Shown here in pieces: positions 14,064-47,811 of a stretch of 64,000 nt of DNA (positions within the stretch are counted from its first letter, which is position 1; every line of letters begins with the position of its first letter). The notes under the pieces are model-generated. The model saw only the letters and a list, made by a program, of their open reading frames with translations, was not told the origin of the DNA and made no database searches. Origin of the DNA: an uncultured Phycisphaerae bacterium (GTDB lineage Bacteria > Planctomycetota > Phycisphaerae > SM23-33); assembly GCA_963760365.1 (NCBI GenBank), contig CAVXDC010000030.1, forward strand, positions 12,663 to 76,662, written 5' to 3'. The translations under genes were made by a program, and so were the position numbers.

Positions 14064-14290
14064 TGGCCTCCTGAAGCAGGCGAACAGGCCAGCTCTCCCT
14101 GTCCGCATCAAAAAGAGGCTCGTTCTGTCTCCATAGTACGGCGATGGAGCATCGGCGAAGTCCCACCTGCCGTCTCTCGACATGCCCAGGCACCCGTAGG
14201 GACGCCCCCGGCAAAAACTGGCAGAACAAGGCGGGGGACAAGATACAATAAAGCAACGGTTGGCCCCAAAAAACTCACAGGGAGATCACC

Positions 14291-14959: not shown

Positions 14960-15058
14960 GGCGCTTCCGCCGTCTCCCCGTGGCAGTATTCGTGGCCCGG
15001 TGTGGGTACAATAGGACAGGCCTATGGTTCCCCATCGAACGTTTACAGGAGATCACCT

Positions 15059-15748
15059 ATGACCATCCGAACTCGCTCCATGATTCCCCTGGCTCTGGCC
15101 CTTGCCGCGACGATGGTATGCCTGGCTGAAGTGGCGACCAAACCGGCTGAAGTAGCTACCAAACCGGCGGTGTCCTTGCCTCCGCCCGTGACGAAAGGGA
15201 CCAAGTCGCTGGAGGAAGTCCTGGCCACCCGGCGGTCCGTGCGGCAGTTCAAGCCCGACCCGCTGACCGTCGAGCAGATCGGCCAGCTTTGCTGGGCCGC
15301 CCAGGGCGTCACCGAACCCAAACGCGGCCTCCGCACGGCCCCTTCAGCCATGGCCAGGTACCCGCTGGAACTCTACGTGGTGACGGCCGAGGGCGCCCGC
15401 CACTATGTCCCCGCCCACCACGCGCTGGAGACCCACGTCGAAGGTGACGCGCTGGCCACGCTGCGGGCCTCCGCCGGCCGACAACGCTCCGTCGCCCAGG
15501 CGCCGGCGGTATTCGTCTTTGCTGCCGTGCCGAGCCGGCTGGGCGGTCGATTCCCCGAGCGCGCGCAGCGATGGGTGGACCTGGAGGTCGGGCACGCCGC
15601 TCAGAACCTACTCCTGGAGGCTGTGGCGCTGGGACTGGGCGCGGTGCCGGTGGGTGGCTACGACGAAGCGGCCGTGGCCAAGGCCCTCCAGCTCCCCGAA
15701 GGGCAGCAGGTCTGTTACCTGATCCCCGTCGGCGAACCGGCGAAGTGA
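15059..15748 (+). CDS. SagB-type/nitroreductase-family dehydrogenase with N-terminal signal/anchor (paralog 2)
   Basis: Intact. The same architecture as 14291-14959, and the DNA is nearly identical over the first ~300 nt of the mature part. It has the same GGAGATCACC-ATG ribosome-binding context and a TACAAT-like box upstream. It contains a 21-bp internal duplication (AEVATKP x2, 15127-15168). Confidence 0.75.
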   Translation: MTIRTRSMIPLALALAATMVCLAEVATKPAEVATKPAVSLPPPVTKGTKSLEEVLATRRSVRQFKPDPLTVEQIGQLCWAAQGVTEPKRGLRTAPSAMARYPLELYVVTAEGARHYVPAHHALETHVEGDALATLRASAGRQRSVAQAPAVFVFAAVPSRLGGRFPERAQRWVDLEVGHAAQNLLLEAVALGLGAVPVGGYDEAAVAKALQLPEGQQVCYLIPVGEPAK

Positions 15749-21001: not shown

Positions 21002-22345
21002 TCAGGTGTTGTTGGCCAGTTCCCGGGCGATAAGGTCTAGAGTGGCTTGGAGATGGGGATCCTTCTGTCTTAGCAGGTTGATCGCGCCTTGGCGTGCATC
21101 ACCGTCGTGTGGTCCCTTCCGCCGAAGTACCCTCCGATCTCCTCTAGGCTGTGGCGGGTCAGTTCACGGGCCAGGTACATGCAGACTTGGCGGGGCAGGG
21201 CGATGGACCGGGTGCGCTTCCTGGACTGAAGGTCAGCCAGGCGGACGTTGAACCGCGCCGTGACGGCTTTGAGGATGTCCTCGATCGTGGTGCCCCGCCG
21301 GTCTGAGCCGAGCTTGGTGCCCAAGGCCTCTTCGGCCAGGGGGATGTCGAAGCTCCGGCTGGTGACCTGCGCCAGCATGGCCACCTTGGCGATGGCGCCC
21401 TCCAGCTCGCGGGAATTGGAGTCGATCACGCCGGCGATGAAGCAGATAACCTCCTCGGGCAGGTCGATGTTGCGCATGCGGGCCTTCTTGCGGACGATGG
21501 CCACGCGCGTCTCGTAGCAGGGGCGGTCGATCTGGGCGACCAGGCCCCAGTTGAACCGGCTGACGAGGCGCTCCTCCAGGTCGGGGATCTGTCCGGGGCC
21601 CCGGTCGCTGGAGAGGATGATCTGCCTTTGCGACTGGTAGAGCGTGTTGAAGGTGTGGAAGAATTCCTCCTGCGTCTGCTCGTGGGCGCTGAGGAACTGG
21701 ATGTCGTCGATGGCCAGCACGTCGGCGTGGCGGTAGCGGTAGCGGAACTCATGCAACTGCCCGCGCTCGACGGCCTCGATGAAGTGGTTGACGAACGTCT
21801 CGCAGCTCAGCACGCAGATGCGGGCCTGCGGGTCAGTGGCGGCGATCTTGCGGCAGGTGGCCTGGAGCAGGTGCGTCTTGCCCAGCCCCACGCTGCCGTG
21901 GATGATACAGGGGGTTGTACGTCTTGCCGGGCGTCTCGCTGACGGCCAGGCAGGCGGCGTGGGCCAGGCGGTTGCACGGGCCGGTGACGAAGGCCTCGAA
22001 GGTGTAGTCCTCTCCCAGCGGCAGGCCCTCGGCCGTCAGGGAGGATGGGGCCGAAGGCAAGGCCCCTTCTGGGGCGGGGGGTTCCTCCTGGACCTTGTCG
22101 GATGCGGTGAGAAAGCACACGCCGACCAGCCGCCCCGTGGCGGCCTGGGCGGCCTCGGTGAACAGGCGCGTGGCGTGGCGGCGGCAGTAGTCCCGCTCGC
22201 GGGGCCCCCCCACGTGGATCTCCAGCAGCCCATGCTCCAGAGAAATGGGCTCCAGCTCCGTGAACCAGGGACGAATGATGTTTCCGCCCGCGGCGATGAC
22301 CTGCTGCACAATCTTTTGCCACAAGGCCGGATCGACGGGAGGCAT
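21002..22345 (-). CDS. dnaA: chromosomal replication initiator DnaA (two frameshifts, near 21085 and 21905)
   Basis: The N-terminal domain is in ORF 21833-22345. The AAA+ core is [45 protein letters not shown]. The DNA-binding domain is [38 protein letters not shown]. The last ~27 codons continue in another frame to TGA at 21002. Confidence 0.9.
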
Positions 22346-22727
22346 CGACGTAGCCTTTCGACAAGCGCCGCAGGCGCGATGGGTTTACACGGTAACGGCC
22401 GTACTTCCCTTGGCGCAACTTTTAACCTTTAACCTCTTAACAAAGAAGACGACCAACGACGAATCGCAAAAACATTTGGCCATCCCTGGCGAAGTGAGCC
22501 ATCCCTCAGGCAGCCGCGCCTCCGACAACGACACCCGGGGAATCTAATGCCGTTTCCCCTGCATGTCAAAACAAAATCGCGCGATGCACCGTGGGCATGA
22601 TGGAATGCGCACGGCGGGAAGCTCTTGCGCACCTCGAAACACGCCGGTCAGTTCGTCCGCCGAGCCGCCGGGGCCAGCGGGCTGCCGTTTCCGCGACTGA
22701 ACTGCGCCGGCGACGTTGGCCCCCGCG

Positions 22728-25700
22728 TCATGCCGTAGCCGTTGGTCCCGCCGGAGGCGGGCTGACGGGGCGCAGCACAATGTTTTCCTCTCCCAGCAGA
22801 CCGACCAGTTCGTCGATCAGCCGCCGGTTAGGCCGGACGCACCACGGGCGGTCCAGCCGGACGATCGTGCGGACGTCGCCGCGGGTGGCGGGACGAATCT
22901 CCAAAAAAACCGGGCAGTCGCCGCGGCCTTCGCCGAGCGCGCCTCGGCTGAGTTCGGTGTCGAAGCCAGGCCGCCCGGAGCCCCTCGAGGGGCGGTGGCG
23001 GACCAGCACGTCGTGGAGGCGCTTCAGCAGCTCCGCAACGGCGGCGCCGGACGGCAGGCGGAGCAGTAGCGAGCCGGTCCGTTCCTCCACCGCGCGGTCC
23101 AGGGGAATGACCTCCTGGACGATCAGGCTGACCCGATCGCGCCGGCGGTCCACCGTGCCGACCAGGAAAACCATCTGATCCGCCCGCAGCAGCTCGGTGA
23201 CTTTCTCGTACACCTCAGCGAACACCACCGCCTCGCAGGAGCCGGTCAGGTCCTCGACGGTAAGCATGGCCATCTTCTTGCCGGCCGATCTTCCGTTTTT
23301 GGTGATCGTCGCGCGGACCGAGGCGAGCATGCAGCCCACGGCCACCTGGCCGGAGAACTCACCTAAACGCGTGAGGTTCGCTCCGGAGGGGCTGGCCAGG
23401 CTCTCCAGCTCCCTCCCATAGCGGACGAGCGGGTGGCTGGAAATGTAGAACCCCAGGGTCTCTTTTTCCGCGGCCAACAATTGCGCCTCCGACCAGGGCT
23501 CGGTTTGAGGGAAGCGCACGGGCGGGCGGGCGGAAGCATCGGAGACGTTGAGGTTGAAGAAGCTCATCTGGCCGCTGCGCCGGTCGGCGGCGGCGGTCTG
23601 GCCCAGCTCGATGGCCTGGTCCAGGGCGGCCATCATGGCGGCCCGGTGGGCGCCCAGGCTGTCGAACGCCCCGCATTTGATCAGCGCCTCGATGGTGGCG
23701 CGGTTGACGCAGCGCAGGTCCATGTGCTGGCAGAAGTGGAACAGGTCGGTGAATCGCCCGGCCTCCTTGCGGGCCGCGACGATGGCCTCCACCGCTCGGG
23801 GTCCGACGCCCTTGACAGCCGCCAGGCCGAAGCGGACGCGCTCACCGTCCACCGTGAAGTCGCTGTCGCAGGTGTTGATGTCCGGCGGGGCGACCTGGAT
23901 GCCCAGGCGCTGGGCCTCGGTCAGGTACTGCACCACCTTGTCGGTGTCGGAGCTTTCATAGGTCAGCGTGGCGGCGATGAATTCCCGCGGGTAGTGCACC
24001 TTAAAGTACTGCGCTCTGGTAGGCGATGATCGCGTAGCGGGTGGAGTGGGCCTTGTTGAAGCCGTAGCCAGCGAATTTCAGGATCAGCTCGAACAGCCGG
24101 TTGGCGTCCTCCAGGCGGATGCCGTTGGCCCGCGCGCCCTGGACGAACTTCGCCCGCTCGGCCGCGATGGTCGATTCCTTCTTCTTGCTGATGGCCTTGA
24201 TCAGCGTCAGCGCGGTGTTCAGCGGAAGCTGCCCCAGGCGGTTGAGCACGAGCATCACCTGCTCCTGGTAGACCATGATGCCGTAGGTCTCTCCCAGGAT
24301 GTCGTCCACGAGGGGGTGGAGCGACGGCACGGGGTCGGCGCTATTCTTGCGGGTGCAGTAGGCGGAGATCAGCTCCATGGGCCCGGGGCGGTACATGGCG
24401 TTGGCGGCGATCAGGTCTTCGATCCGCGTCGGCTGCATCTGGAGCAGGACGTTCCTCATCCCGTCGGACTCAAACTGGAACACCCCCTCGGTCTGCCCGC
24501 GGCGGAACAGCTCCAGCACAGCCTGGTCGTCCAGGGGCAGGGAATCGGGCTCCAGGTCCTTGCCCGTTCGGCTGCGCACCAGCTCCCGCGCCCGCTGGAG
24601 GATGGTCAGCGTCCGCAGGCCCAGGAAGTCCGTCTTCATCAGCCCGATCTTGTAGGCGCAGGTGTCGCCGTCCCACTGGGTGATGACCTCCTCGCTGTCG
24701 GCCTGGCGGCACAGCGGCACGATGTTCTCCAACGGCTCGTCGGCCACCACCACCCCCGCGGCGTGCACGCCGGCGTGACGGGCCAGGCCTTCCAGCTTCC
24801 GCCCGGCGTCCAGCAGTTCCCGCACGCGCGCGTCGCGGTCGTACATCGTCCGCAGGTCCGGCTCGGCCGCCAGGGCGCTATCCAGCGTGACGCCCAGGCC
24901 CTCCGGTACCTTCTTGGCGATGACGTCCACCTCGGACAGCGGCAGGCCCATCACGCGCCCCACGTCGCGGACCACCGCGCGGGCCTTGAGCGTGCCGAAC
25001 GTGATGATCTGGGCCACGTGGCCGTATTTCTCACGGACGTACTGGAGAACCTTGGCCCGGCCTTCCTGGCAGATGTCGATGTCGAAGTCGGGGTCCTCGT
25101 CCCGTTGCGGGTCGGTCCACCGCTCAAACAGCAGCCCGTAGCGGATGGGATCGACGTTGGAGATGTCCAGGCAGTAGCCCAGCAGCGTCGCGCAGCCGCT
25201 GCCGCGGGCCCCGATGGGAATGCCGTTGCCCCGGGCGAACTGCACGAAGTCGTGCACGATGAGCAGGTAGCTGCTGTAGCCCTTGGCCTCGATGACCTCC
25301 AGCTCCCGCTGCATCCGCTGCACGTATTCTTCCGGCGGTTTTTGGTCAAACTTGCGGTTCAAGGCCTCGAAGGCGATCTGGGCCAGGTAGTCCTTGGCCG
25401 CGACGCCGCCGGGCGTGTGGAAGACCGGCAGGTGCTTTCGGCCGAAGGTCATCTTGGTCTGGCACATCTCGGCGATTTTCAGCGTGTTGTCCGCCGCCCC
25501 CGGCCAGGCCGCCAGCGCGCGGCGCATCTCGGCGGGGCTCTTGAGATAAAGCTCCGGCGGATAGCTCAGCGCCCCGCCCTCAGCCAGCGTCTTGCCGGTG
25601 GAGATGCAGGTGAGGATCTCGTGGGCGGGCTTGTCCTGGCGGCGGAGGAAGTGCACGTCGTTGGTGCCCACCAGGCCGACGCCCAGCTCCCCGGCCAACT

Positions 25701-26283
25701 CGGCTAGCAAGGGGTTCACCTGGTCCTGCTCGGCCAGGCCCTGGTTCTGGACCTCGATGAAGAAGCGATCGGGCCCGAAGATGTCTTTATATTCCCCCCC
25801 GATCCGCCGGGCCGCGTTCTTCTGACCCGAAAGCAGCGCCGAGGGGATTTCCCCGCCCAGGCAGGCGGTCGTGCAGATCAGCCCCTCGTTCAGCTCCGAA
25901 AGCAACTGCCGGTCCACGCGCGGGCGGTAGTAGAAGCCCTCCAGGTAGGCCCGCGAGGATAGCTTCATCAGGTTCCGCCAGCCCGTGTCGCTGGCGGCCA
26001 GGAGCAGCAGGTGATACGCGGCCGTCTGGATGTTGCCCATCGAGCGGTCGCCCCGCGTGGTGGGCGAGATGTACGCCTCCATGCCCAGGATGGGCTTGAC
26101 GCCGCCGGCCTTGGCCGCCAGGTAGAAATCCACCGCCCCGAAGAGGTTCCCGTGGTCAGTCAGGGCCAGGCTGTCCATGCCCATCGCCCCGGCCGCGGCC
26201 ACCAGGTCCTCGATGCGGTTGCCCCCGTCCAACAGGGAGTAGTGCGAGTGCACGTGCAGGTGAGCGAATCCGTCCATGGCCAT
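22728..26283 (-). CDS. dnaE: DNA polymerase III alpha subunit (one frameshift at about 24005-24015)
   Basis: The PHP domain is FAHLHVHSHYSLLDG. The polymerase core is GRGSGCATLLGYCLDI, DIDIDICQ and FNKAHSTRYAIIAYQ, then KVHYPREFIAATLT and the OB-fold C-terminus in ORF 22728-23999. Together these give about 1180 aa. Confidence 0.92.
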
Positions 26284-28591: not shown

Positions 28592-29896
28592 TCAACGCTT
28601 CCTCAGCATCGTGTAGGGGCCGTCGGGGATGATGGCGATTCGCGCATCGGGCCGGGTGACCAGAAATGAGTCGATGGCCTTTTGCGCCCGCTGCTGGGCG
28701 TTGCCGGGTCCGAGGATGGGCGTCACGGCGATATGCTTTTGCCTCTGGGCCTCCAGGCCGTCGCTGACGAACCACAAGCGCTCCTGCCCGATCCGCGCCA
28801 GGACCTTGGCCTGCATCTGGAACTCCCATTGGTCGAGCTGGGTCTGGTCGCTGGCGGCGATGTCAGAAAGAAACGTCCGCCAATCGTTGTCGTATTGCCG
28901 CATCAGCTCCGTGTACGCGGATGAGCCGAGCTGCTCGCCGCAGTGGGAGGCGATCAGGAGCGTGGAGTCCTCCGCCAGCGCCGGCAAGGCCGTGCACAGG
29001 CCCTTGACGGTCTGATAGAAGGTCTGGTCCAGCGGGAAGCCCCCGCCGTTGGTGATGACCAAATCGAACGGCCCGTCGATGGCGGCCGAGGTCCACTCTC
29101 CCACGTCGCGGCAACCGGCCAGGTGCGCCTGCTCCAGGTCGCCGCAGTAGACCCCGGCGATCCGTCGGTCGCGCGTGATGGCCACGTTGAGCAGAAAGTC
29201 CACCCCCACAGCCTTGGCGACCTTCAGGGCAATCTCGTGGCAGGGGTTGCCTTCCAGGATGCCGTTGTCGGCCTTGGGGTGCGAGAGCGTCGCATAGCCG
29301 TGGAACCGCTGCACGGTGGCCAGGTCCACCAGCGCCGGACAGACGCCCTTGCGCCCCCCGGAGTACCCGGCCATGAAATGCGGCTCGATGTACCCGGTCA
29401 CGATCCGCAGGTCCGCGGTGGCGAAGCGCCGGCAGACGCTGACGGGCGGGGAGTCGCTGACCTTCACCAGCGTGGAGGAATCGTCGCCCCGATGGTCGAT
29501 CACCTCCAGCCGCCGCAGCAAGTCGCCGCCCAGCATCAGCTCGCGCTCTCCGGCCGTGCTGGGCCGGTGCAGCCCCGTGCCGATGATGACGACGATCTGC
29601 CGATCGGCCACGCCGGCGGCGTTCAGCACCTCAAGTAAGGGTGGGAGAAAAACCCTGTTGGGCACCGGCCGGGTGATGTCGGAGATGGTGATGGCCACGG
29701 TCGAAGGATTTTTGGCGGCGACGATCTGTGAGAGGGGCTTGCTGCCGATGGGCGCCGCAAGGGCCGCCTTCACCTCGGCCTGCGGGTTGGGCAGGGCGGG
29801 GACAGTCTTGCCCTCCAGCACGGCCGCCGAATCCGGCACGGCCAGCGCCATCCCTTCCCTGCCGTAGAGCATCTTGATCGTCTTGGTCTTGCCCAT
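28592..29896 (-). CDS. larA: LarA-like nickel-pincer-dependent 2-hydroxyacid racemase/epimerase (DUF2088 family)
   Basis: Intact 434 aa. The central block is GYIEPHFMAGYSGGRKGVCPAL, which parallels the LarA cofactor-tethering GG(R)K lysine region as I recall it. GNPCHE follows downstream. It is divergent from the BMC-associated pduS-like gene. Confidence 0.7.
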   Translation of the reverse strand: MGKTKTIKMLYGREGMALAVPDSAAVLEGKTVPALPNPQAEVKAALAAPIGSKPLSQIVAAKNPSTVAITISDITRPVPNRVFLPPLLEVLNAAGVADRQIVVIIGTGLHRPSTAGERELMLGGDLLRRLEVIDHRGDDSSTLVKVSDSPPVSVCRRFATADLRIVTGYIEPHFMAGYSGGRKGVCPALVDLATVQRFHGYATLSHPKADNGILEGNPCHEIALKVAKAVGVDFLLNVAITRDRRIAGVYCGDLEQAHLAGCRDVGEWTSAAIDGPFDLVITNGGGFPLDQTFYQTVKGLCTALPALAEDSTLLIASHCGEQLGSSAYTELMRQYDNDWRTFLSDIAASDQTQLDQWEFQMQAKVLARIGQERLWFVSDGLEAQRQKHIAVTPILGPGNAQQRAQKAIDSFLVTRPDARIAIIPDGPYTMLRKR

Positions 29897-30074: not shown

Positions 30075-31406
30075 ATGTCAACCGTTACCGTCGATACGAT
30101 CTGCTCTGCGGGCGTGGTGGGGGCCGGCGGGGCGGGCTTTCCCACGCACGTCAAGCTCTCGAGCCAGGTCGACACGGTCCTGATTAACGCCGCCGAGTGC
30201 GAACCCCTGCTCCACAAGGACAAGGAGGTCCTCAAGGAGCACGCCGACGCGGTGCTGGCCGGCCTGGCGGCGGCCATGGAACTGACCGGGGCCAAGCGCG
30301 GCGTCATAGGCATCAAGGAAAAATACGGGGACGTCATCGAGCTGCTCCGCCCCAAGCTCGGCCGCGGCATGGACATCGCCCCGCTGGCCGACGTCTACCC
30401 GGCCGGGGATGAGTTCATCTTAGTCTATGACGTGCTGGGAAGAGTCGTGCCGCCGGGGGGCATCCCGCTGAACGTCTCTGCGGTGGTGATCAACGTCGAG
30501 ACGGCCTTGAACGTCGCCCTTTCTTCTTCTCGTCCGGTGACCGAGAAATATCTCTCCATCGCCGGGGCGGTGGCCGAGCCGGTCACGCTTCGCGTGCCGG
30601 TGGGCATCTCGCTGGCGGAGTGCGTCGTCGCCGCCGGCGGGCCGACGGTGAGCGACGCCAACTACCTCGTCGGCGGCGTGATGATGGGCTTTCTGGAGGA
30701 AAACCACCAAGCCATGGTGGACAAGACCACCGGGGGCGTGATCGTGCTGCCCAGCCGGAACATCGTCGTGCGGCGGCGGCGACAGGATTGGAGGCAGGTC
30801 CAGCGGATCGGGCGAAGCGCCTGCGACCAGTGCGTCTTCTGCACCGAGCTGTGCCCGCGCTACCTGCTGGGCCATCCCATCGAGCCGCACCGGGCGATGC
30901 GCAGCCTGCAATTCACGCTGATCGGCGAGCCGAACGTCCAGGGCACGGCCTTCTGCTGCGAGTGCAACCTGTGCAGCCTGTATGCGTGCCCGGAGGACCT
31001 GGACCCCAAGAACGTCTGCGCAGAAAACAAGCACCGCCGGGCGAAAGAAAAGAAGCGATGGGATCATCCCCCCTTCAACCCAGACCGCCCCGCCTTGCTC
31101 CTGGCCGGCCGCAAGGCGCCCATGCAGCGGCTGATGCAGAAGCTGGGTCTGGCGGGCTACCGCAACGTCGGGCCGATGAAGCCCGGCCTGCTCGCGACGC
31201 GCAAGGTGGGCATCAAGCTCAAGCAGCACGCAGGCGCGCCCTGCGAGCCGACGGTCCAGGTCGGCCAGGCGGTCAAGATTGGTCAGGAGGTCGGCCGGCT
31301 GCCGAACACCAACGGCAGACCCGCCCTGGGGGCGCCCGTGCACGCCTCCATCGACGGGGTCGTCTCGGCTATTACCGATGGCGCCGTGTGGATCGAAAAG
31401 AAATGA
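30075..31406 (+). CDS. PduS/RnfC-like NAD(P)H-binding Fe-S flavoprotein
   Basis: Intact 443 aa. The N-terminus is GVVGAGGAGFPTHVKL (RnfC/PduS nucleotide-binding motif). Two ferredoxin-type clusters are present: CDQCVFCTELCP and CCECNLCSLYACP. A barrel-like C-terminal domain follows. It lies directly upstream of a PduT-like shell gene. Confidence 0.75.
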   Translation: MSTVTVDTICSAGVVGAGGAGFPTHVKLSSQVDTVLINAAECEPLLHKDKEVLKEHADAVLAGLAAAMELTGAKRGVIGIKEKYGDVIELLRPKLGRGMDIAPLADVYPAGDEFILVYDVLGRVVPPGGIPLNVSAVVINVETALNVALSSSRPVTEKYLSIAGAVAEPVTLRVPVGISLAECVVAAGGPTVSDANYLVGGVMMGFLEENHQAMVDKTTGGVIVLPSRNIVVRRRRQDWRQVQRIGRSACDQCVFCTELCPRYLLGHPIEPHRAMRSLQFTLIGEPNVQGTAFCCECNLCSLYACPEDLDPKNVCAENKHRRAKEKKRWDHPPFNPDRPALLLAGRKAPMQRLMQKLGLAGYRNVGPMKPGLLATRKVGIKLKQHAGAPCEPTVQVGQAVKIGQEVGRLPNTNGRPALGAPVHASIDGVVSAITDGAVWIEKK

Positions 31407-31422
31407 ACCAGGACCCAGACCC

Positions 31423-32001
31423 ATGACTTCCAACGCACAGTCCCTTTCCCAAAGAGCGATCGGCGCGGTGGAGCTTTCCAGCATCGGCGTCGGCTACCAG
31501 GTGCAGGATGAGATGCTCAAGGCCGCCACCGTGCGGCTGCTGGTGGCCCGGACGATCTGCTCGGGAAAGTACTTCATCGTCGTCGGGGGTACAGTCAGCG
31601 ACGTGCAGTCGTCCGTCGAGGCCGCTCTGCGGTCGGCCGAGGAGGCGATCATCGATCAGGTGGTGATCCCCAACGTGCACGAGTCGGTCTTCGCCGCCTT
31701 GGGCCAATCGGTCGTCCTGGTTCCAGGACAGGCGGCGGCCCTGGGGGTGGTGGAGAGCTTCAGCGGCGTGAGCATCATCGCCGCCGCCGATGCCGCCGCC
31801 AAGGCAGCCAATGTGACGCTGTTCCGCATCCACGTGGCCATGGCGCTGGGGGGTAAGGGGTTCTGCCTGCTGACCGGCACGGTGGCCGATGTGCGGGCCG
31901 CCGTCCAGGCCGCCGCCGAAGAGGTCCGCCGCCGAGGGTTGCTTGTCAGCCAGATCGTCATCCCCCAGCCCAGTCCGGAACTGTTCAGCGAATATATCTG
32001 A
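31423..32001 (+). CDS. BMC-T shell protein, tandem BMC domains, PduT-like
   Basis: 192 aa with two BMC-fold halves: AIGAVELSSIGVGYQVQDEMLKAATVRLLVARTICSGKYFIVVGGTVSDV, and ALGVVESFSGVSIIAAADAAAKAANVTLFRIHVAMALGGKGFCLLTGTVADV. The Cys in TICSGK aligns with the PduT [4Fe-4S]-ligand Cys in TICPGK, recalled from memory. Confidence 0.75.
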   Translation: MTSNAQSLSQRAIGAVELSSIGVGYQVQDEMLKAATVRLLVARTICSGKYFIVVGGTVSDVQSSVEAALRSAEEAIIDQVVIPNVHESVFAALGQSVVLVPGQAAALGVVESFSGVSIIAAADAAAKAANVTLFRIHVAMALGGKGFCLLTGTVADVRAAVQAAAEEVRRRGLLVSQIVIPQPSPELFSEYI

Positions 32002-32161: not shown

Positions 32162-32932
32162 ATGGCAATGGATTTACCCATAGACGATCGCCGTATAAAA
32201 GAAGCGGAATTAGTTTCTCAAAAAGGCTTTATGTCTTTGACTGAACTCGTTCAACATCTGGACGTTTCCGAGAGCACGATCCGGCGAGACTTGGAAGTTC
32301 TGGAAGAACAGGGGGTGGTCCGTCGCACGCACGGGGGCGCGGTGTATGTCAAAGACTCAAGCGCCCACCACCTGGCCTTTGCGGATCGGGAGACCTCGGC
32401 AGCGGTGGAGAAGCAGGCCATCGCCAAGGCGGTGGCGGAGCTGATCCCGGCGGGCAGGACGATCCTCATCAACGGGGGGACAACCTGCTACCAGGTCGCC
32501 CGCCAGATCGCCGGCAGGCGGCTGAACGTGGTGACCAACTCGCTGCCCATCGCCGCGCTGCTGTCGGGCGACGTGGCCACGGAGGTCACGCTGATCGGTG
32601 GCTACGTGTATCCGCGGACGGGCGTGGCCTTGGGCCGCATGGCCGAGCAGCAGTTGGAGGACCTGCGGGCCAGCCAGTTGATCCTGAGCTGTGCGGCGCT
32701 GAATCCCGAAGGGGCCTTCAATCCCAACCAGATGATGGTGGACGTGGAGCGGCGGATGATGCAGGTGGCGGATGAGGTCATCCTGGCCGTGGACCACACC
32801 AAGCTGGACAGCCGCTCCGTCGTCAAGCTGTGCGACCTGGACGAGGTGGACGTGATCGTGACCGACGCCGGCCTGGACGAAAGCGCCCGCCGCTGGCTGG
32901 AGGCGCTCAAGGCCAAGGTGATCATCGCATGA
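32162..32932 (+). CDS. DeoR/GlpR-family transcriptional regulator
   Basis: Intact 256 aa. The N-terminal wHTH is LTELVQHLDVSESTIRRDLEVLEEQGVVRRTHGGA. The C-terminal sugar-phosphate sensor domain is ILINGGTTCYQVA..VVTNSL. Confidence 0.85.
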   Translation: MAMDLPIDDRRIKEAELVSQKGFMSLTELVQHLDVSESTIRRDLEVLEEQGVVRRTHGGAVYVKDSSAHHLAFADRETSAAVEKQAIAKAVAELIPAGRTILINGGTTCYQVARQIAGRRLNVVTNSLPIAALLSGDVATEVTLIGGYVYPRTGVALGRMAEQQLEDLRASQLILSCAALNPEGAFNPNQMMVDVERRMMQVADEVILAVDHTKLDSRSVVKLCDLDEVDVIVTDAGLDESARRWLEALKAKVIIA

Positions 32933-33683: not shown

Positions 33684-33986
33684 ATGGCAATGCAAGCATT
33701 GGGCATGGTCGAGACGCGCGGCCTAGTCGCGCTGATCGAGGCGGCGGATGCGATGTGCAAGGCCGCCAACGTGGAGCTGGTCGGCTGGGACCGCGTCGGG
33801 GCGGGGATGGTCACTGCCTTCGTCCGCGGGGAAGTGGCCGCGTGCAAGGCGTCGGTGGACGCCGGGGCCGCCGCGGCCTCCAAGTTGGGCGAGGTGATCG
33901 CCTCCCACGTGATCCCCCGGCCACATGAGGACCTGGACCACGCGGTCCCCCACAAGGGCGAGGGCAAGAAGGCCTCCCCCAAGTGA
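33684..33986 (+). CDS. BMC-H shell protein (PduA/CcmK-type hexamer) with short basic C-terminal tail
   Basis: [66 protein letters not shown], the canonical Pfam00936 pattern. Confidence 0.92.
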
Positions 33987-34045: not shown

Positions 34046-34315
34046 ATGACCATGGAAGCATTGGGCATGATTGAGACCAAGGGCTACGTAGGCCTGGTGG
34101 AGGCCAGCGACGCCATGTGCAAGGCGGCCAACGTGGAGCTGGTCAAACGGATCGAGATCGGCGGCGGCTACGTGACCACGCTGGTCCGAGGCGACGTCGG
34201 TTCGGTCAAGGCCGCCGTCGAGGCGGGCGCCGCCGCGGCGGGTAAGGTTGGCGAGCTGGTTGCCTCCCACGTGATTCCCGCCCCCCATGAAGGCCTAACG
34301 GGCGTGTTCCTTTAA
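34046..34315 (+). CDS. BMC-H shell protein
   Basis: [66 protein letters not shown]. Confidence 0.92.
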
Positions 34316-34368: not shown

Positions 34369-35556
34369 ATGAAGATTCTGGTAGCCAACATCGGCTCGAC
34401 AAGCTTCAAGTTCCGCCTGTTCGAGATCGCAGGCGGCCGGGAGTGCGAGCTGGCCTCGGGCTCGGCGGACCGCATCGGCGGCCGGGGCGGAGAGCTTTCG
34501 CTTACCCTCACCGGACAGGCCGCCCGCATCGCCCCGACTGACTTTGCCGACCACGGCGAGGCCATCCTGGCCGTGCTGGACCGTCTGAGCGAGGTTAACA
34601 TTCTCGACCGTAGCGGCCTGGATGCCGTGGCCTTCAAGACCGTCGTGGGCGGTGACCTGCCGGCCGTGACGAAGGTGGACGACCACGTGCTGGCGGAGAT
34701 GGAGAGCCTCTCGCCCGTCGGGCCGGCCCATAACCCGCCCTACGTGGCCGCGATGCGGTTGTTCCGCAAGGTGCTGGCCGGCGTGCCGCTGGTGGCCTGC
34801 TTTGAGAGCGGCTTCCATCGGACTAATCCGCCACGCCGTCGGCTTTACGCCGTACCGGCGGACTGGGCCGACCAGTACGGAGTGCGGCGCTACGGCTACC
34901 ACGGGGCCAGCCACCGCTACATCGCATGGCGGGTCGGCCAGCTCCAGCCGCAGGCGCGGCGGATCATCAGTTGCCACCTGGGGGGCAGCAGCAGCCTGTG
35001 TGCCATCCGCGACGGCCAATCGGTGGCGACGAGCATGGGCCTGTCGCCCCAGTCGGGCCTGCCGCAGGGCAACCGCGTGGGCGACTTCGACGTCTTTGGC
35101 GTGAAGCTGATGATGGTCCGAACCGGCCGGAAGTTTGACGGCCTGCTGGAGGAGCTGGGCGAACGCAGCGGCCTGGCGGGGTTGAGCAATACCTCCGGCG
35201 ACATGCGCGACATCCAAAAGGACGCGGCTGCGGGCCACGAGCGGGCCAAGCGGGCGCTGGAGGTTTTTGTTACGTCCGTGAGGGACTATCTGGGCGCGTA
35301 CCTGGTGGAACTGGGCGGCTGCGACGCCGTCGTCTTTACCGGCGGCATTGGTGAGAACCATCCGTCCCTCCGCGCGGCCATCTGTGAAGGCTTGGACTTT
35401 GCGGGCATCGCCCTGGATGCAACCAAGAACGCTGCGGCCAAGGGCGAATCCCGCATCGACGCCGACGGCTCCAAGGCGGCCATCTGGGTCATGCCCACCA
35501 ACGAGGAGCTTATCGTCGCCCGCCAAGCGGCGGAGATTCTTAACGACAGATCGTAG
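34369..35556 (+). CDS. ackA: acetate/propionate-family kinase
   Basis: Intact 395 aa: [51 protein letters not shown] and VFTGGIGEN. There is no encapsulation-peptide-like extension. Confidence 0.9.
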
Positions 35557-35623: not shown

Positions 35624-35896
35624 ATGGAAGAAGCATTGGGAATGATTGAGACCAAGGGTCTGGTGGCCGTGATCGAGGCCACCGACGCGATGCTCAAGGC
35701 CGCCAAGGTCAGCTACGTGGGCATGACCAAGGTCGGCAGCGGGTACGTCTCGGTGCTGGTGGCCGGCGACGTGGCCGCGTGCAAGGCGTCGGTGGACGCC
35801 GGGGCCGCCGCGGCGGGGAGGATCGGCGAGGTGGTGTCGGTCCACGTGATTCCCCGGCCGCACGGTGACGTGTCCAAGATCCTGCCCAAGACTTAA
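35624..35896 (+). CDS. BMC-H shell protein
   Basis: [67 protein letters not shown]. It shares a 44-bp identical DNA block with the first BMC-H gene. Confidence 0.92.
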
Positions 35897-35971: not shown

Positions 35972-36286
35972 ATGTTCATTGCCAGGGTGCGAGGCAACGT
36001 GGTCACCACGCAGAAGGTCATGAAGATGACCGGCCGGAAATTGCTGATCATCGAGCCGCTGCGGGTGGACGAGGCCGGTGGCCAGATCAAACCCACCGGC
36101 AAGTGCTTCGTGGCGGTGGACTCCATCGACGCCGGCACGGACGACCTGGTGCTGGTGACGCAAGGGTCCAGCGCGAGGATGACCGAGACCACCGCTGAGG
36201 CTCCGGTGGACGCGGTGGTGGTCGGCATCATCGACACGATGACCGTGCTGGGCAAGATGATCTACAGGAAAGGCCAGAACGATTGA
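35972..36286 (+). CDS. BMC-P vertex protein (EutN/CcmL family)
   Basis: MFIARVRGNVVTTQKVMKMTGRKLLIIEPL...LVLVTQGSSAR...PVDAVVVGIID, the typical pentamer pattern. The ORF is open from 35927. Confidence 0.85.
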   Translation: MFIARVRGNVVTTQKVMKMTGRKLLIIEPLRVDEAGGQIKPTGKCFVAVDSIDAGTDDLVLVTQGSSARMTETTAEAPVDAVVVGIIDTMTVLGKMIYRKGQND

Positions 36287-37876: not shown

Positions 37877-38131
37877 ATGCTGCTGGCCATGGTCGAAGGA
37901 AGCGCGATAACGACGATCAAGCATCCCTCCCTGAAGGGCTGGAAGTTGTTGGTCGTCCAGCCGCTGGACATCGAAGGCCGGCCTGACGGGGACATAATCA
38001 TGGCGATCGACATGTTGGGCGCGGGCGTGGGCACCAAGGTGGTGATAAGCAATGACGGCCGAAGCGCCCAGGAAATGGTCGGTGACGAGCGCAGCCCGCT
38101 CCGCTGGACGGTGATAGGGATCGTGGACTGA
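37877..38131 (+). CDS. BMC-P vertex protein (EutN/CcmL family)
   Basis: MLLAMVEGSAITTIKHPSLKGWKLLVVQPLD...MAIDMLGAGVGTKVVISNDG...RWTVIGIVD. Confidence 0.88.
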   Translation: MLLAMVEGSAITTIKHPSLKGWKLLVVQPLDIEGRPDGDIIMAIDMLGAGVGTKVVISNDGRSAQEMVGDERSPLRWTVIGIVD

Positions 38132-38136
38132 GGAAG

Positions 38137-38982
38137 GTGTGCCGGACCTTGGATAAGGAACTAGTCAACCAGGTGACCGAACAGGTGATCCAGATGCTCC
38201 GCCGACAGGGCGTGACGATCCCTGCTGCCGCTGTGGTTCCACCGGAGGTCTTGCCCTCGTCGGTCGGCGTTGCGCCGTCGGCTACTGGGCCCGTCAAGAG
38301 GGCCACCGCTCCGCCTGCCGGGCGGGTCTTTGTGACGGCGGAGGTGCTTCGCCAACGGATCGCTGCCGCGGGGGGCGGCGGCGGTATCGAGTTAGGCTGC
38401 AATGAGTTTCTCACGCCCAACGCCGTCGATTTGGCCGAGCAGAGACGGCTGACCATCCGCCGGACGACCTGCCCGGGGTTACCGGCCCAGGCTGCCCCGA
38501 TGGGCGCGGGAACTAGCGTTGCAGCGGCGCCTGTCCGTCAGGCCGAGCCGAAAGGTGCGTGCGGGATGATCGGCCTGGTCGTCTATCGGGCCGACGAGAA
38601 GGTCCGCAACGTGCTGGCGGGTCTGCCCCACGACGGCGTGGCCGTGACAGACTTCACCCAAGGAGATTGCTGGATGGCGGACCTGCGGCGGTTGTGCCAG
38701 GCCGTCGTCACCGGCCAGGTGGCCTCCGGGGCGGCCATCCTGCCGTATGGAGCCAACGCGATGGTCCTGGCAGGCAAGATCAAGGGCATCCGTCCCGTGC
38801 AGGGCACTCGGCCCGAGAGCGTGGCGGCGGCGCTGCGGCACTTCGGCGCCAACCTGCTGGTGTTGGAACACGCCTTCAGCACTTACCACCCGATGCGTTC
38901 GATGCTCCGCATCCTGGCGGCCGGGGGGCCGGGGGCGAATGCGGCGCTGAAGGCGGCGCTAGAGGAACTAGAAAGGTCCTGA
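38137..38982 (+). CDS. BMC-associated protein: encapsulation-peptide-like N-terminus plus degenerate RpiB/LacAB-like C-terminal domain
   Basis: Intact 281 aa. The N-terminus is LDKELVNQVTEQVIQMLRRQG. The C-terminal half is IGLVVYRAD..AAILPYGANAMVLAGKIKGIRPVQGTRPESVAAALRHFGANLLVLEHAF. This parallels RpiB GILICGTGIGMSIAANKxxGIRAA..NDxNVLxxG, but the CGTG Cys and the N-terminal DH pair are not conserved (alignment from memory). The start is GTG 38137 or TTG 38149. Confidence 0.55.
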   Translation: MCRTLDKELVNQVTEQVIQMLRRQGVTIPAAAVVPPEVLPSSVGVAPSATGPVKRATAPPAGRVFVTAEVLRQRIAAAGGGGGIELGCNEFLTPNAVDLAEQRRLTIRRTTCPGLPAQAAPMGAGTSVAAAPVRQAEPKGACGMIGLVVYRADEKVRNVLAGLPHDGVAVTDFTQGDCWMADLRRLCQAVVTGQVASGAAILPYGANAMVLAGKIKGIRPVQGTRPESVAAALRHFGANLLVLEHAFSTYHPMRSMLRILAAGGPGANAALKAALEELERS

Positions 38983-38987
38983 GCGAT

Positions 38988-39296
38988 ATGCGTGTTTCGC
39001 GTGTCATAGGAAAGGTCACGCTCAACCGCAGGATGGCCGAGCTCCAGCCGGGCAGCTACCTGATCGTTCGGCCTTACGACCGCGGGGCGCTGGTGGGCAA
39101 GAACCCCGGCAGCATGGAGGAGTCCATCGTGGTCTACGACATCCTGGCCGCCCGGGAGGGCGACCTGGTGGGGATGGTCGAAGGCCGCGAGGCGTCCATG
39201 CCGTTCCGCCCCGCCAGGGTTCCCTTTGACGCCTATAACGCCTGCATTCTGGACGCCATCGACTTCCAGCCCGTGCTGGAATTGCCGCGGACCTAG
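38988..39296 (+). CDS. BMC-P vertex protein (EutN/CcmL family)
   Basis: MRVSRVIGKVTLNRRMAELQPGSYLIVRPYD...VVYDILAAREGDLVGMVEGREA...DAYNACILDAID. Confidence 0.8.
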   Translation: MRVSRVIGKVTLNRRMAELQPGSYLIVRPYDRGALVGKNPGSMEESIVVYDILAAREGDLVGMVEGREASMPFRPARVPFDAYNACILDAIDFQPVLELPRT

Positions 39297-39318: not shown

Positions 39319-40311
39319 ATGCACAATATGGCCAGCGAGTTTGAACTCAAAAAGCTGATCTGCGACATCGGCCGGCGGATGTACGACAAGGGTTTCGTGG
39401 CCGCCAACGACGGGAACATCTCTTGCCGCGTCGGCAAGGGCCGGTTCCTGTGCACGCCGACGTTGATGTCCAAGGGGTTCCTGCGGCCGGCCGACATCGC
39501 CGTGGTGGACGACAAGGGCAGGCAGCTGGAAGGCCCGCTGGCCCGCACCAGCGAGATCCTGCTGCACCTGGAGATCTACCACGAGCTGAGCGAGATCAAC
39601 GCCGTCTGCCACGCCCACCCGCCCTACGCGACGGCGTTCGCCGTGGCCGGCATCGACGTGCCCTCCAACATCCTGCCGGAGGTGGAAATCTTCATCGGCC
39701 AGGTGCCCATCGCCGAGTACGAGACCCCCGGCGGGGAGGGCGTCGCCAAGACGCTCCTGCCGCACCTCCGCCGCAAGGCCAACACCATCCTGCTGGCCAA
39801 CCACGGGGCGGTCGCCTGCGACAAGACGCTGGAGCAGGCCTTCTTCCACTTAGATACGCTGGATATGTACTGCCGCATCCTGCTGCTGAGCAAGGAGGTG
39901 GGCAACATTCGCCAGCTCCCCCCGGAAAAGGTGCGGGAATTGCTGGCCATCAAGAAGAGCCTGGGCATCGCCGATCCGCGCATGGACGGCCAGGAGGTGG
40001 CCGCCCTGGCTGGCAGCGATGAGTTCCTGCGGGGCTTTTCGACGCGAGCGATCCCCCAGCACACCGCCGACGCCAACGGCCACGGCCGAGGGCAGGGCAT
40101 CGCCGGCCAGCCTTCCCAGGCCGGCCAGGCCCAACCGCTGCCGGCGGGGCGACAGCTCTTTCCTGCGATGGTGGATGGTCGGGTCCTGCCCGGCCCTGAC
40201 GGCATGGGTGCCAGCAGCGAGACCGCCCGCCGCCGCAGCCTGGAAGACCAGACCGAGCGACTAGTCCAGATCATCACCGACCGCATCGTCCAGATCGGTA
40301 GCGGTAGCTAG
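39319..40311 (+). CDS. class II aldolase (fuculose/rhamnulose-1-phosphate aldolase-like) with C-terminal encapsulation-peptide-like helix
   Basis: ANDGNISCRV, SEILLHLEIYHE, AVCHAHPPYATAF and LLANHGAVACD are the metal-binding His pattern of class II aldolase/adducin. A ~100-aa low-complexity linker follows, ending LEDQTERLVQIITDRIVQIGSGS*. Confidence 0.88.
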   Translation: MHNMASEFELKKLICDIGRRMYDKGFVAANDGNISCRVGKGRFLCTPTLMSKGFLRPADIAVVDDKGRQLEGPLARTSEILLHLEIYHELSEINAVCHAHPPYATAFAVAGIDVPSNILPEVEIFIGQVPIAEYETPGGEGVAKTLLPHLRRKANTILLANHGAVACDKTLEQAFFHLDTLDMYCRILLLSKEVGNIRQLPPEKVRELLAIKKSLGIADPRMDGQEVAALAGSDEFLRGFSTRAIPQHTADANGHGRGQGIAGQPSQAGQAQPLPAGRQLFPAMVDGRVLPGPDGMGASSETARRRSLEDQTERLVQIITDRIVQIGSGS

Positions 40312-41395
40312 GACGGTTCTTGGGGCGGGGGCGGGATTGACGGCGGGGGTTCCAGGCCCCGGGCGGTGCGGAGCGTCTCGATCTTGTCCAGCGGCTTTTG
40401 CAGGGCATTGCTCCGCAGGCCGCGGAGGGTCTCGAACTGCTTGGCGGTGGAGTCAATCCGCTGGCCGAGCTTGTCCAGCTCCTCGTTGTACCTTTGCCAC
40501 TGTCGGTAGAACTCGCCCAGCAGCGTGGCCACCTCATCGGCGGTCTTTAGGACGTTGGCGTTCTCGGCCGCCTGGCGGATGACCGACAGCATCGCATACA
40601 GCGTCAGGGGGCTGGCCAGCACTACCTGCTTGGATAAGGCTTCATCGATCAGGTCGGCCTGGGCCTCCAGGACCAGCGAGAAGATCTGCTCACTGGGCAG
40701 AAAGACGATGACGTAGTTGACCGTCGGCACGGCCGGGTCGATGTAGCCCCGCTTGGCGACGGCCTGGACGTGCCCGCGGACGGCAGCGACCAACTGCTCC
40801 AGATGCTCGGCCCGCTGGGCGTCGCTGTCGGCATCCAGGTAGGCCTTGTATCGCTCCAGGGGGAACTTGACGTCCATGTTCAATTTCAGCTCGTTGGGCA
40901 GCAGGAAGGTGAAGTCGGGCCGGCCGGCCTCGGCGTCGTCGGACGACTGCCGTACGTAGTTGACACCCTCCTGCATGCCGACCAGGCGCAGCACGTCCTG
41001 GGCCATTCGCTCGCCCCAGGCCCCGCGGCGCTGCGTGCTGGCCAGCATCCGATGGAGTTCCCCCGTCGTCGCCGCCAGCGACGACACCGAGCTGCTGAGC
41101 TGGCCGAAGTCCTGGCGGCGGGTGGACTCGACCTGCTGGAGGAAGCTGCGGACCTGCTCCAGGCGCCCGGAGACGTCCTGGAGGGTCTGGTCGATCAGCG
41201 CCTTGCGCCCGTCCAGGAGGGCGGCAGCCGATTCGCTTAGCCGGCGGCTGTTGGCGTCCAGCGCCTCGGCCGCGATCAAGGCGAACATCTGGCGCATCTG
41301 CGCCTCGGCCGCCCGGCGCGGAGGTGCGCCACCACCAGGGCGATCGCCGCTCCCAACACGGCGCCCAGGGCAAACCCCACGACGAAGTAAATCAT
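40308..41395 (-). CDS. rmuC: DNA recombination protein RmuC (one frameshift near 41310)
   Basis: The N-terminal TM helix MIYFVVGFALGAVLGAAIALVV follows GGGAGGTGGAGC. Then comes a coiled-coil and the RmuC nuclease-like core, RPDFTFLLPNELKLNMDVKFPLERY..VIVFLPSEQIF. Its TAG stop shares the palindromic CTAG with the convergent aldolase stop. Confidence 0.8.
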
Positions 41396-41529: not shown

Positions 41530-43207
<1,678 letters not shown>

Positions 43208-46402: not shown

Positions 46403-46557
46403 GCGATTGCCCTCTTCACTTTTGAAAGTACCCAGGGGGAGCATTATCCAGCCCACAGGTGCGTGCTTCAAGGCTTTTTGAACCTTGAATTATTGGTGCA
46501 TCCGGTGACGGCCTTGCGAGCCGAGCCGGAGCGGCGATATCATGCCATTTTGGTTGC

Positions 46558-47811
46558 TTGCGGAGACGGTGCGTGGACACAGTGCGTCTAGCGATGGTGG
46601 GGTTCACAGGCTACGGCTGGTCCTTGGCGCAGCAGATCGCCAAGGCCTCCGCGGCCTGCGGCTGCCGCCTGGTGGCCGCGGCGGATAACCGCATGGATCG
46701 GGCGCCCGACCGCGTCGAAAAGCTGCGGGCCGCGGGCGTCGAGCTGTACGACGACGCCCTGGCGATGTATCGAGCCTTGGCCGGCCGGTGCGAGGCGGTC
46801 TACGTCGCTACGGGCATTTCCTCCCACGAGCCGCTCACCTGCGCCGCATTTGAGGCGGGCTTTCCGGTGCACCTGGAAAAGCCCCCCGCGGCCACGGTCC
46901 AGGAAGTCGATCGCATGGTGGAGGCGATGCGCCGAGCGGGGCAGTATTGCCTGGTGGGGTTCCAGGCCGTGCACGGTGAGGACATCCGCCTCGTCAAGCA
47001 GCGCGTGGTCGAGGGTCGGCTGGGCAAAGTGCAGACGTTGGTCTGCCGGGCGAGCTGGCCGCGGGGGCAGGCCTATTACGACCGCTCGGACTGGTCGGGC
47101 AGGCTTCGGCTGGGCGATCGCTGGGTGCTGGATGGCCCGGCCACCAACGCCTTGGCCCATCAAGTCACGAACATGCTGCTGCTGGCCTGCGACCGGCCCC
47201 ATCGCCTGGCCCGCCCGTCGGCTGTGCGGGCGGAACTGTACGCCGCCGCCCCCATCACCGGCCACGACACCGCCGCTATCGAGATGGTCACTGCCGAAAA
47301 TCAAACCGCCATCCTGCTGGTCAGCCACTGCGGCCTGGCCCAGGCCGGGCCGTTCATAGAGCTTCAGGCCGAGCGGGGCAAGGTGTTCTGGGATCAGAAG
47401 AAGGGCGCGGAGATTACCTACGCTGACGGCCAAAAGGAGTTTTGCCCCGCCCCGGCCGACAGCGGGCGGGGAGAGATGATCGCCAACTTCGTCCAGGCCG
47501 TGCACCGCAAAGACGGCAGTGACCTACGCTGCCCGCTGGAAGAGTCGTGGGCAGAGACGGTGGCGATGGACGGCGCACACGAGAGCAGCCAGGTCATCCA
47601 TCACATCGCCCCCGCCTATTGTCGTACCGTTCGGGAAGACAAGGGTGGGCCGCGGGTCGTGGTCGAGGGACTGGATGAGCTGCTGGTCCAAGCCGCCCGC
47701 CGGCGGTGCCTGCTCAGCGACCTGCCCGACGCCCCCCCCTGGGCCGTGGCCACCAAGCCTTTCGACCTGAGCGGGTACAAGAGTTTCCCCCAGCAATTCC
47801 GCGGCCGGTAG
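46558..47811 (+). CDS. Gfo/Idh/MocA-family oxidoreductase
   Basis: Intact. The N-terminal Rossmann region is RLAMVGFTGYGWSLAQ..LVAAAD, then HLEKPPA (family EKP motif) and a C-terminal alpha/beta domain. The substrate is unknown. Confidence 0.6.
   Translation: MRRRCVDTVRLAMVGFTGYGWSLAQQIAKASAACGCRLVAAADNRMDRAPDRVEKLRAAGVELYDDALAMYRALAGRCEAVYVATGISSHEPLTCAAFEAGFPVHLEKPPAATVQEVDRMVEAMRRAGQYCLVGFQAVHGEDIRLVKQRVVEGRLGKVQTLVCRASWPRGQAYYDRSDWSGRLRLGDRWVLDGPATNALAHQVTNMLLLACDRPHRLARPSAVRAELYAAAPITGHDTAAIEMVTAENQTAILLVSHCGLAQAGPFIELQAERGKVFWDQKKGAEITYADGQKEFCPAPADSGRGEMIANFVQAVHRKDGSDLRCPLEESWAETVAMDGAHESSQVIHHIAPAYCRTVREDKGGPRVVVEGLDELLVQAARRRCLLSDLPDAPPWAVATKPFDLSGYKSFPQQFRGR

Follow-up and report, generated by a model that had tools for sequence, protein, structure and literature searches.

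The gene pair examined here has its closest described counterpart in the electron-export module of Sutter et al. (PNAS 2024; PMC11626177), who renamed the flavoprotein PduS as MNdh (metabolosome NADH dehydrogenase) and the cluster-binding homologue of the shell protein PduT as BMC-T^SE. Among the more than 7,000 bacterial microcompartment (BMC) loci surveyed there, MNdh occurs in 2,172; a BMC-T gene directly adjoins it in 97% of these, and the pair is found only in BMC types with an NADH-producing aldehyde dehydrogenase (AldDH). In 361 loci the pair is present and alcohol dehydrogenase (ADH) absent, while 1,725 keep both, for which condition-dependent use was suggested. In the complex of MNdh and BMC-T^SE of C. 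botulinum, studied in purified form, NADH reduces the Fe-S clusters. The PVM type is among those bearing the module: it was counted there 20 times, and 18 of these cases are satellites. The electron-export idea itself dates, for GRM1 compartments, to Axen et al. 2014 (PMC4207490), and was later reused for SPU and Asgard archaeal compartments. This article describes such a pair in a stretch of 64 kb (64,000 nucleotides, 'the window') from an uncultured Phycisphaerae bacterium (contig CAVXDC010000030.1), where it stands at the head of the main operon of a PVM-type locus.

The compartment itself resembles that of Planctopirus limnophila, a member of the same phylum. As outlined in passages of PMC4207490 and PMC6620236 (after Erbilgin et al. 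2014), the latter comprises a class II aldolase with a C-terminal encapsulation peptide (EP), an AldDH (PvmJ), PduL (PvmB), acetate kinase (PvmG), a DeoR regulator, and a triplet of BMC-P together with BMC-H shell proteins; all of these have counterparts in the window. The same passages name PvmO, a protein of the lactate/malate dehydrogenase (Ldh/Mdh) family, as the predicted NAD+ recycler, and the products are 1,2-propanediol and lactate. The window locus differs in having no PvmO and in adding MNdh, BMC-T and a LarA neighbour. In Latescibacteria, Axen et al. 2014 (PMC4207490) described 'SPU-like' loci whose five enzymes are all in the window locus too; those loci come from another phylum, and the window locus adds acetate kinase and DeoR in PVM gene order. 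Finally, PduS and PduT of Salmonella and Citrobacter are homologous to the window pair, and the equivalent of PduT Cys38 is kept in the BMC-T protein. The PDU locus, however, encodes a diol dehydratase that depends on B12, an adenosyltransferase (PduO) and an alcohol dehydrogenase (PduQ), and the window locus is without all three.

Set against the C. botulinum GRM1 module, the window pair shares the four-domain permuted flavoprotein with two Fe-S motifs, the adjacent tandem BMC-T protein with its pore cysteine, the co-occurrence with AldDH, the lack of a B12 enzyme and the proposed replacement of ADH by electron export. It differs in a pore loop that reads CSGK where CP(G/S)K was published, and in its place in the main PVM locus, as against the satellite position of 18 of the 20 published PVM cases. 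It is also planctomycete, has a LarA neighbour, and is known here from sequence alone.

Searches covered the 64-kb window, the source genome being incomplete. Domains and families were assigned with Pfam, with NCBIfam at its curated cutoffs, and by matches to solved structures; genes were placed by targeted Pfam and tblastn searches, and EP-like helices were judged by eye. Relatives were gathered by scanning species-representative genomes with the MNdh protein of the window. A second sample was anchored on the aldolase, and is unbiased towards the pair; it yielded nine distinct related PVM main loci with enough upstream DNA. Related loci are denoted by L numbers.

Domain architecture and cofactor sites of the pair

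On their domain order and conserved residues, the two genes encode a genuine PduS/PduT-type pair. The first product shows, in order, the Pfam domains Complex1_51K (PF01512, residues 11-148, E 5e-41), SLBB (PF10531, 162-206), a Fer4_17 dicluster (249-310) and RnfC_N (PF13375, 376-437). Its matches among solved structures are to RnfC (7ZC6, E 2e-41; 9ERI, E 2e-39), and the top NCBIfam matches are RnfC, PrdC and RsxC, all under their cutoffs. The N-terminal barrel of RnfC (residues 32-83) aligns with residues 377-433 at the C-terminus of the query; this domain is therefore circularly permuted. A C-terminal RnfC_N domain is a listed hallmark of MNdh (PMC11626177). The FMN/NADH, SLBB and double [4Fe-4S] domains of RnfC (7ZC6, 9ERI, 8AHX) all align with MNdh, but RnfC is a subunit of a membrane complex with its barrel at the N-terminus, whereas MNdh carries the barrel at the C-terminus and has a shell protein, not RnfD/G, as its partner.

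The cofactor sites are equally recognisable. The motifs GAGGAGFP and NAAECEP match GMGGATFP and NAAECEP of RnfC 7ZC6 and are kept in relatives. Two ferredoxin-type motifs follow, CDQCVFCTELCP and CCECNLCSLYACP; all four cysteines of the first are kept in each of the 23 loci with an intact MNdh gene. The protein hence has the permuted four-domain order, the two [4Fe-4S] motifs and the Gly-rich FMN/NADH motif by which MNdh is recognised. No EP-like helix is visible at either terminus.

The likely start codon of the second gene, an ATG at 31423, lies 16 nt past the MNdh stop codon. Its product consists of two PF00936 stretches in 192 residues, as in a single-layer tandem BMC-domain protein (~185 residues), and over its full length it aligns with two solved structures of PduT, 3PAC (E 1e-40) and 3N79 (E 2e-38). 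Cys46, in the sequence TICSGK, coincides without gaps with Cys38 in TICPGK of C. freundii PduT (3PAC), and three such residues are predicted to bind a [4Fe-4S] cluster at the trimer pore. The CSGK loop (31552-31569) is invariant in the 23 intact BMC-T proteins encoded next to MNdh. The pore motif was published as a universal CP(G/S)K (PMC11626177). With the family clustered at 50%, a census of its 150 best representatives gave CPGK in 69, CSGK in 22, CAGK in 6 and CPGR in 5, with the cysteine lost in about 35. Judged from these sequences, the published motif is slightly too narrow; C-[PSA]-G-[KR] fits better, and the ligand is retained.

These results bear out much of a sequence-only reading of the same DNA, which had placed an RnfC/PduS-type protein with two ferredoxin-type motifs at the head of the locus, and beside it a BMC-T protein retaining the cluster cysteine of PduT. 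Loss of that cysteine on proper alignment, which would have spoken against it, is not seen.

Distribution and phylogeny of the module

The MNdh scan returned 24 loci with 40-82% identity, from metagenome-assembled genomes (MAGs) of Planctomycetota, Acidobacteriota, Sumerlaeota and Desulforhopalus. The nearest of them all belong to planctomycete MAGs; the best match has 82% identity, the source genome not being one of the species representatives. The BMC-T gene directly follows the MNdh gene in 24/24 loci, so that their adjacency is not due to chance. Seventeen of the 24 have no further BMC gene in the available flanking DNA, consistent with satellites. The architecture of the window is kept in L079, L025, L028, L001 and L002, with L001 and L002 sharing the layout LarA, MNdh, BMC-T, DeoR and phosphotransacylase. 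In two Acidobacteriota loci the pair is joined to a PVM-like main locus, at its 5' edge in L016 and at its 3' edge in L015.

In a neighbour-joining tree of MNdh, the window protein forms one clade with those of L079, L001, L028, L002, L025 and L003. The sister group is a clade of satellites, with the main-locus member L031 nested in it. Within Planctomycetota, integration of the module, and with it a change between satellite and main-locus sites, has thus taken place at least twice.

The aldolase-anchored sample shows how common this arrangement is. The pair is present in three of the nine related main loci (L025, L028 and L031) and not in the main locus in the other six (L030, L032, L039, L044, L048 and L055). 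Neither an ADH gene nor one of the Ldh type came to light within 10 kb in any of the nine. In this clade, main loci are thus as a rule without ADH, and an in-locus pair is common, not exceptional. Likewise, since PvmO is missing from the window and from all nine main loci, it is not a universal PVM feature in this clade.

Some loci show redox or methyl-transfer genes beyond the pair. Behind it in L003 (12868-15767) come an HdrA/NfnB-like flavoprotein, which combines Fe-S domains with an MvhD (FlpD) domain, and a MetV-like protein; L010 and L011 have a homocysteine-methyltransferase/MTHFR-like gene 1-3 kb downstream of the pair. Such genes might provide an electron sink in the cytosol, but the loci that share them are too few for a conclusion.

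Probable NAD+ recycling by electron export

The gene content identifies the surroundings of the pair as a complete PVM-type aldolase microcompartment locus of a planctomycete: AldDH, PduL, acetate kinase, DeoR, and a BMC-P triplet with BMC-H proteins are all present, in the gene order of related PVM loci (Table 1), as expected of PVM compartments in Planctomycetota or Verrucomicrobiota. Within this setting the pair is probably an MNdh/BMC-T^SE NADH-dehydrogenase module that exports electrons and regenerates lumenal NAD+. The case draws on features observed in the locus and its relatives, namely the domain order and cofactor motifs that are hallmarks of MNdh, Cys46 aligned with that of PduT, the 16-nt gap and conserved adjacency of the two genes, the presence of AldDH in the operon, and a window with no ADH and a locus with no B12 enzyme.

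The proposed sequence of events is modelled on homologues and the literature, in particular as regards the oxidation of NADH, the binding of clusters, the lumenal site and the direction of electron flow. The class II aldolase would release an aldehyde, by analogy with PVM lactaldehyde, inside the shell. AldDH would oxidise it to the acyl-CoA and be the source of NADH, and PduL and the kinase would convert the acyl-CoA to the acid with formation of ATP. MNdh, which has no EP of its own, is expected to attach to the BMC-T^SE trimer from the lumenal side, where it would pass the hydride of NADH to FMN and on to its two [4Fe-4S] clusters. The next station would be a third cluster, bound at the pore of the trimer by its three Cys46 residues, and the last a cytosolic acceptor. 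The trapped NAD+ pool could in this way be regenerated without reducing half of the aldehyde to alcohol.

Absence of a conventional recycler was checked by tblastn (E<=0.01), for which the queries were an aldo-keto reductase, a 2-hydroxyacid dehydrogenase, a planctomycete Fe-ADH, and FucO and Mdh of E. coli. Neither the locus nor the window as a whole gave a homologue of any of these enzyme types, Ldh/Mdh included, in agreement with the earlier statement that the locus has no ADH. The sole other NAD-type oxidoreductase that Pfam found among the remaining larger open reading frames (ORFs) of the window belongs to the Gfo/Idh/MocA family (46489-47808); its orthologue likewise lies downstream of the PVM locus in L028.

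The classical role of PduS is a different one: by reducing cob(III)alamin and cob(II)alamin it would renew the adenosylcobalamin that a B12-dependent enzyme needs. This was the original assignment for Salmonella PduS, as cited in PMC11626177, and some related PVM loci contain a gene of the URO-D family. That family includes corrinoid-dependent methyltransferases. Members lie between AldDH and the second BMC-P gene in L030 (7394-8443), L031 (7547-8602), L036 and L075. The window locus, however, contains no URO-D gene, and no diol dehydratase, ethanolamine lyase, adenosyltransferase or other B12-dependent enzyme. All ORFs from 28.6 to 41.4 kb have been given to other families; the sequence-only reading, too, had seen no B12-dependent enzyme or adenosyltransferase in the locus. 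The only B12-binding domain of the window belongs to a radical-SAM protein 16 kb away. With no B12 enzyme in the locus to serve, the cobalamin-reductase role was rejected; it is extremely improbable.

Other electron-transfer roles of the pair would be the import of reducing power, scavenging of lumenal O2, or redox sensing. Fe-S electron transfer is reversible in principle, and O2 reduction has been discussed as a possible side activity (PMC11626177). However, the locus encodes no lumenal electron-consuming enzyme, and the published MNdh proteins occur only alongside NADH-producing AldDH (PMC11626177). Such roles appear unlikely.

A more serious rival to export as the only recycling route is dual recycling, in which the pair operates together with a reductase encoded elsewhere (a PvmO-type Ldh/Mdh, an Fe-ADH or an aldo-keto reductase) that would either be directed into the compartment or use aldehyde leaking from it. 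Some 1,2-propanediol would then be made, depending on redox state. The 1,725 published loci with both systems (PMC11626177) lend it weight. So do the related main loci that have neither the pair nor an ADH, whose recyclers must lie at some other site in the genome; the pair itself is a satellite in most of the planctomycete relatives. Candidate reductases are also at hand: the relative L080 encodes an Fe-ADH at another genomic site, beside a LarA orthologue, and in L032 a gene for an aldo-keto reductase lies 3 kb away from the PVM locus. On the other side, the 64-kb window contains no reductase gene of these kinds, and the Fe-ADH of L080 has no obvious EP. Dual recycling is a substantial possibility, with the balance somewhat against it.

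Several earlier premises need revision in this light. The sequence-only reading took an alcohol dehydrogenase or lactaldehyde reductase to be the PVM recycler; the recycler predicted for the characterised system, as given in the relevant passage of PMC4207490, is the Ldh/Mdh-family PvmO and not an Fe-ADH. Absence of ADH is also no peculiarity of this locus: within 10 kb, the nine related main loci are all without one, those that have the pair and those that do not alike. Because loci without the pair are ADH-less too, lack of ADH alone is no evidence that the pair replaces it. Nor can a purely oxidative compartment that makes no 1,2-propanediol be concluded, because 64 kb of the genome are visible, L080 has its Fe-ADH, and 1,725 published loci run dual systems. 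The central proposal, that electrons of NADH leave through the PduS-like and then the PduT-like protein, stands as the best-supported reading, with all defining sequence features present, but it is not new (PMC11626177). The occurrence of such pairs as a routine part of described PVM loci, which had been named as a counter-argument, is largely borne out by the 20 published PVM cases and three of the nine related main loci.

A number of observations weigh against export by the pair as proposed. The second Fe-S motif of MNdh has a Cx4C spacing, one residue more than in RnfC, although this is kept in all relatives, including those from Desulforhopalus and Acidobacteriota; and the residue after the pore cysteine is Ser, not the Pro of the published motif. 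PVM loci that have no pair in the main locus are without ADH as well, the window is part of a genome in which a reductase gene may lie elsewhere, and a relative does encode the Fe-ADH mentioned above. No conserved gene for a cytosolic acceptor emerged when the neighbours of satellite loci were clustered, with no family occurring in more than three loci. As to the substrate, its assignment follows from PVM homology; the aldolase falls under every NCBIfam cutoff, and tblastn with E. coli FucI, FucK, FucU and FucP found no fuc genes in the window, which has no rha genes either.

The LarA neighbour

A gene for a LarA-type nickel-pincer 2-hydroxyacid racemase lies divergently beside MNdh. Its best structural match is 9EID, a 'broad-substrate spectrum lactate racemase' (E 7e-92), and it falls under the NCBIfam LarA cutoff. 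Like the aldolase, it has a 100% identical database counterpart. The same divergent arrangement is found in L001, L002, L003 and L079. In L003 the trio of LarA, MNdh and BMC-T stands without PVM genes, and in L080 the LarA orthologue is accompanied by the Fe-ADH, an HpcH/HpaI aldolase and an MR/MLE enzyme, a set that looks like a non-phosphorylative deoxy-sugar route. The PVM-free trio and this deoxy-sugar neighbourhood are hints that LarA is no chance neighbour and has a functional link with the electron-export pair or with lactate derived from deoxy-sugars. The window LarA probably handles the lactate product, and as a neighbour it is indirect support for such a product. None of the papers searched connects LarA with microcompartments. 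In L054, a LarA copy of 70% identity lies 3.6 kb downstream of the PVM aldolase.

The PVM locus and its surroundings

The coordinates of the locus are collected in Table 1. The Aldolase_II match (PF00596) spans residues 12-188 of the ~327-residue aldolase, whose C-terminal SLEDQTERLVQIITDRIVQIG forms an amphipathic helix as judged by eye; the protein is 100% identical to database protein P0001. A class II aldolase with a C-terminal EP behind a long linker is what defines the PVM signature enzyme (PMC4594438). By analogy with PVM, the substrate would be fuculose- or rhamnulose-1-phosphate, giving lactaldehyde. For AldDH, the start codon was chosen from the length of orthologues (490-492 residues). 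The locus ends against a convergent rmuC, as had been noted earlier. A decaying remnant of a locus is ruled out by the intact motifs and by genes that are full-length compared with orthologues. A scan for promoters and terminators over 29.7-33.0 kb found nothing exceeding background and is uninformative on operon structure.

Table 1. Features of the PVM-type locus and of the MNdh/BMC-T^SE pair; positions refer to the window.
Feature	Position	Strand	Basis
LarA-type nickel-pincer 2-hydroxyacid racemase, divergent from MNdh	28592-29896	-	Pfam Lar_N + LarA_C
MNdh (PduS/RnfC-type metabolosome NADH dehydrogenase), 443 aa	30075-31406	+	Pfam order; RnfC structures; relatives in 24 loci
FMN/NADH-site motifs GAGGAGFP (aa 16-23) and NAAECEP (aa 38-44)	30120-30206	+	Alignment with RnfC 7ZC6
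First ferredoxin-type 4Fe-4S motif CDQCVFCTELCP (Cx2Cx2Cx3CP), aa 250-261	30822-30857	+	Alignment of relatives
Second 4Fe-4S motif CCECNLCSLYACP (Cx2Cx2Cx4CP), aa 294-306	30954-30992	+	Alignment of relatives
RnfC_N barrel-sandwich domain, C-terminal	31200-31385	+	Pfam PF13375; alignment to RnfC
BMC-T^SE (PduT-type tandem-domain shell protein), 192 aa	31423-32001	+	Two PF00936 domains; PduT structures
Cys46 codon (TICSGK), predicted pore ligand of shared [4Fe-4S] cluster	31558-31560	+	Gapless alignment to 3PAC
DeoR-family regulator	32162-32932	+	Pfam HTH_DeoR + DeoRC
PduL-type phosphotransacylase, N-terminal amphipathic EP-like helix	32929-33624	+	Pfam PTAC E 4e-72; NCBIfam NF011652, 245 bits (cutoff 209)
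BMC-H shell protein 1	33684-33986	+	Pfam BMC E 3e-29
BMC-H shell protein 2	34046-34315	+	tblastn/ORF mapping
Acetate/acyl kinase	34369-35556	+	Pfam Acetate_kinase E 9e-96
BMC-H shell protein 3	35624-35896	+	tblastn/ORF mapping
BMC-P (EutN/CcmL) vertex protein 1	35972-36286	+	PF03319 in orthologues
CoA-acylating aldehyde dehydrogenase (AldDH), N-terminal EP-like helix	36377-37852	+	NCBIfam NF011927, 557 bits (cutoff 403)
BMC-P vertex protein 2	37877-38131	+	PF03319 in orthologues
RpiB/LacAB-like protein, 281 aa, EP-like N-terminal helix, Pro/Ala-rich linker	38137-38982	+	Weak Pfam LacAB_rpiB, E 2e-5
BMC-P vertex protein 3	38988-39296	+	PF03319 in orthologues
Class II aldolase (signature enzyme), long linker, C-terminal EP-like helix	39328-40311	+	Pfam Aldolase_II E 1e-45
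rmuC, convergent, bounds locus	40308-41390	-	tblastn with L025 RmuC (40356-41378, 75% identity)

The RpiB-like protein deserves comment in its own right. Its weak Pfam match covers the C-terminal half only and is preceded by the N-terminal helix LDKELVNQVTEQVIQMLRRQG; the gene is found at the corresponding place in all the related PVM loci that were examined, and its product is probably encapsulated. RpiB-like proteins of SPU compartments have been reported to be catalytically inactive. A second protein of interest, of about 406 residues and without a Pfam or PDB match (L031: 11002-12222), is encoded directly after the aldolase in about half of the related PVM loci (about 20). It is missing from the window, and its presence is uncorrelated with that of the MNdh pair.

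Elsewhere in the window, a B12-binding/radical-SAM protein (12370-14060, +), apparently split across two frames, lies beside two tandem nitroreductase-family genes with hydrophobic N-termini (14252-15745, +); both are unrelated to the BMC locus. The essential genes rpoD (41548-43207), dnaE (22651-26277) and dnaA (21005-22348) are split over two or three frames compared with intact orthologues in L025 and L079, and EF-G near 1.1-3.3 kb also looks frame-split. The frame-split essential genes most likely reflect indel errors of the assembly rather than pseudogenes.

Implications for planctomycete microcompartments

The general question behind these observations is how NAD+ can be recycled in a sealed protein organelle without wasting half of the substrate as alcohol. 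A model supported with purified proteins was put forward in 2024, and the window locus does not open the question anew: electron export in place of ADH had by then been proposed, tested in vitro and counted in PVM loci, of which this is one more example. What the window adds is a further natural case, in which a PVM compartment is apparently encoded with no recycler other than the pair. The new points are minor ones: a pair within the main locus in a planctomycete clade, the absence of ADH as the norm for PVM loci of this clade with or without the pair, the CSGK pore, and the conserved LarA neighbour.

A further, tentative possibility, on the whole a doubtful one, concerns the clade formed by the window, L079, L001, L002, L025 and L028, in which the pair and a divergent LarA gene may have become fixed in the PVM operon as a fully oxidative variant of the compartment. 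If so, all lactaldehyde would be converted to lactate with formation of ATP and the electrons passed to a cytosolic acceptor, while through LarA the L-lactate would become the enantiomer open to oxidation or excretion by the cell. The LarA neighbour is thus a modest new lead on the fate of the lactate product.

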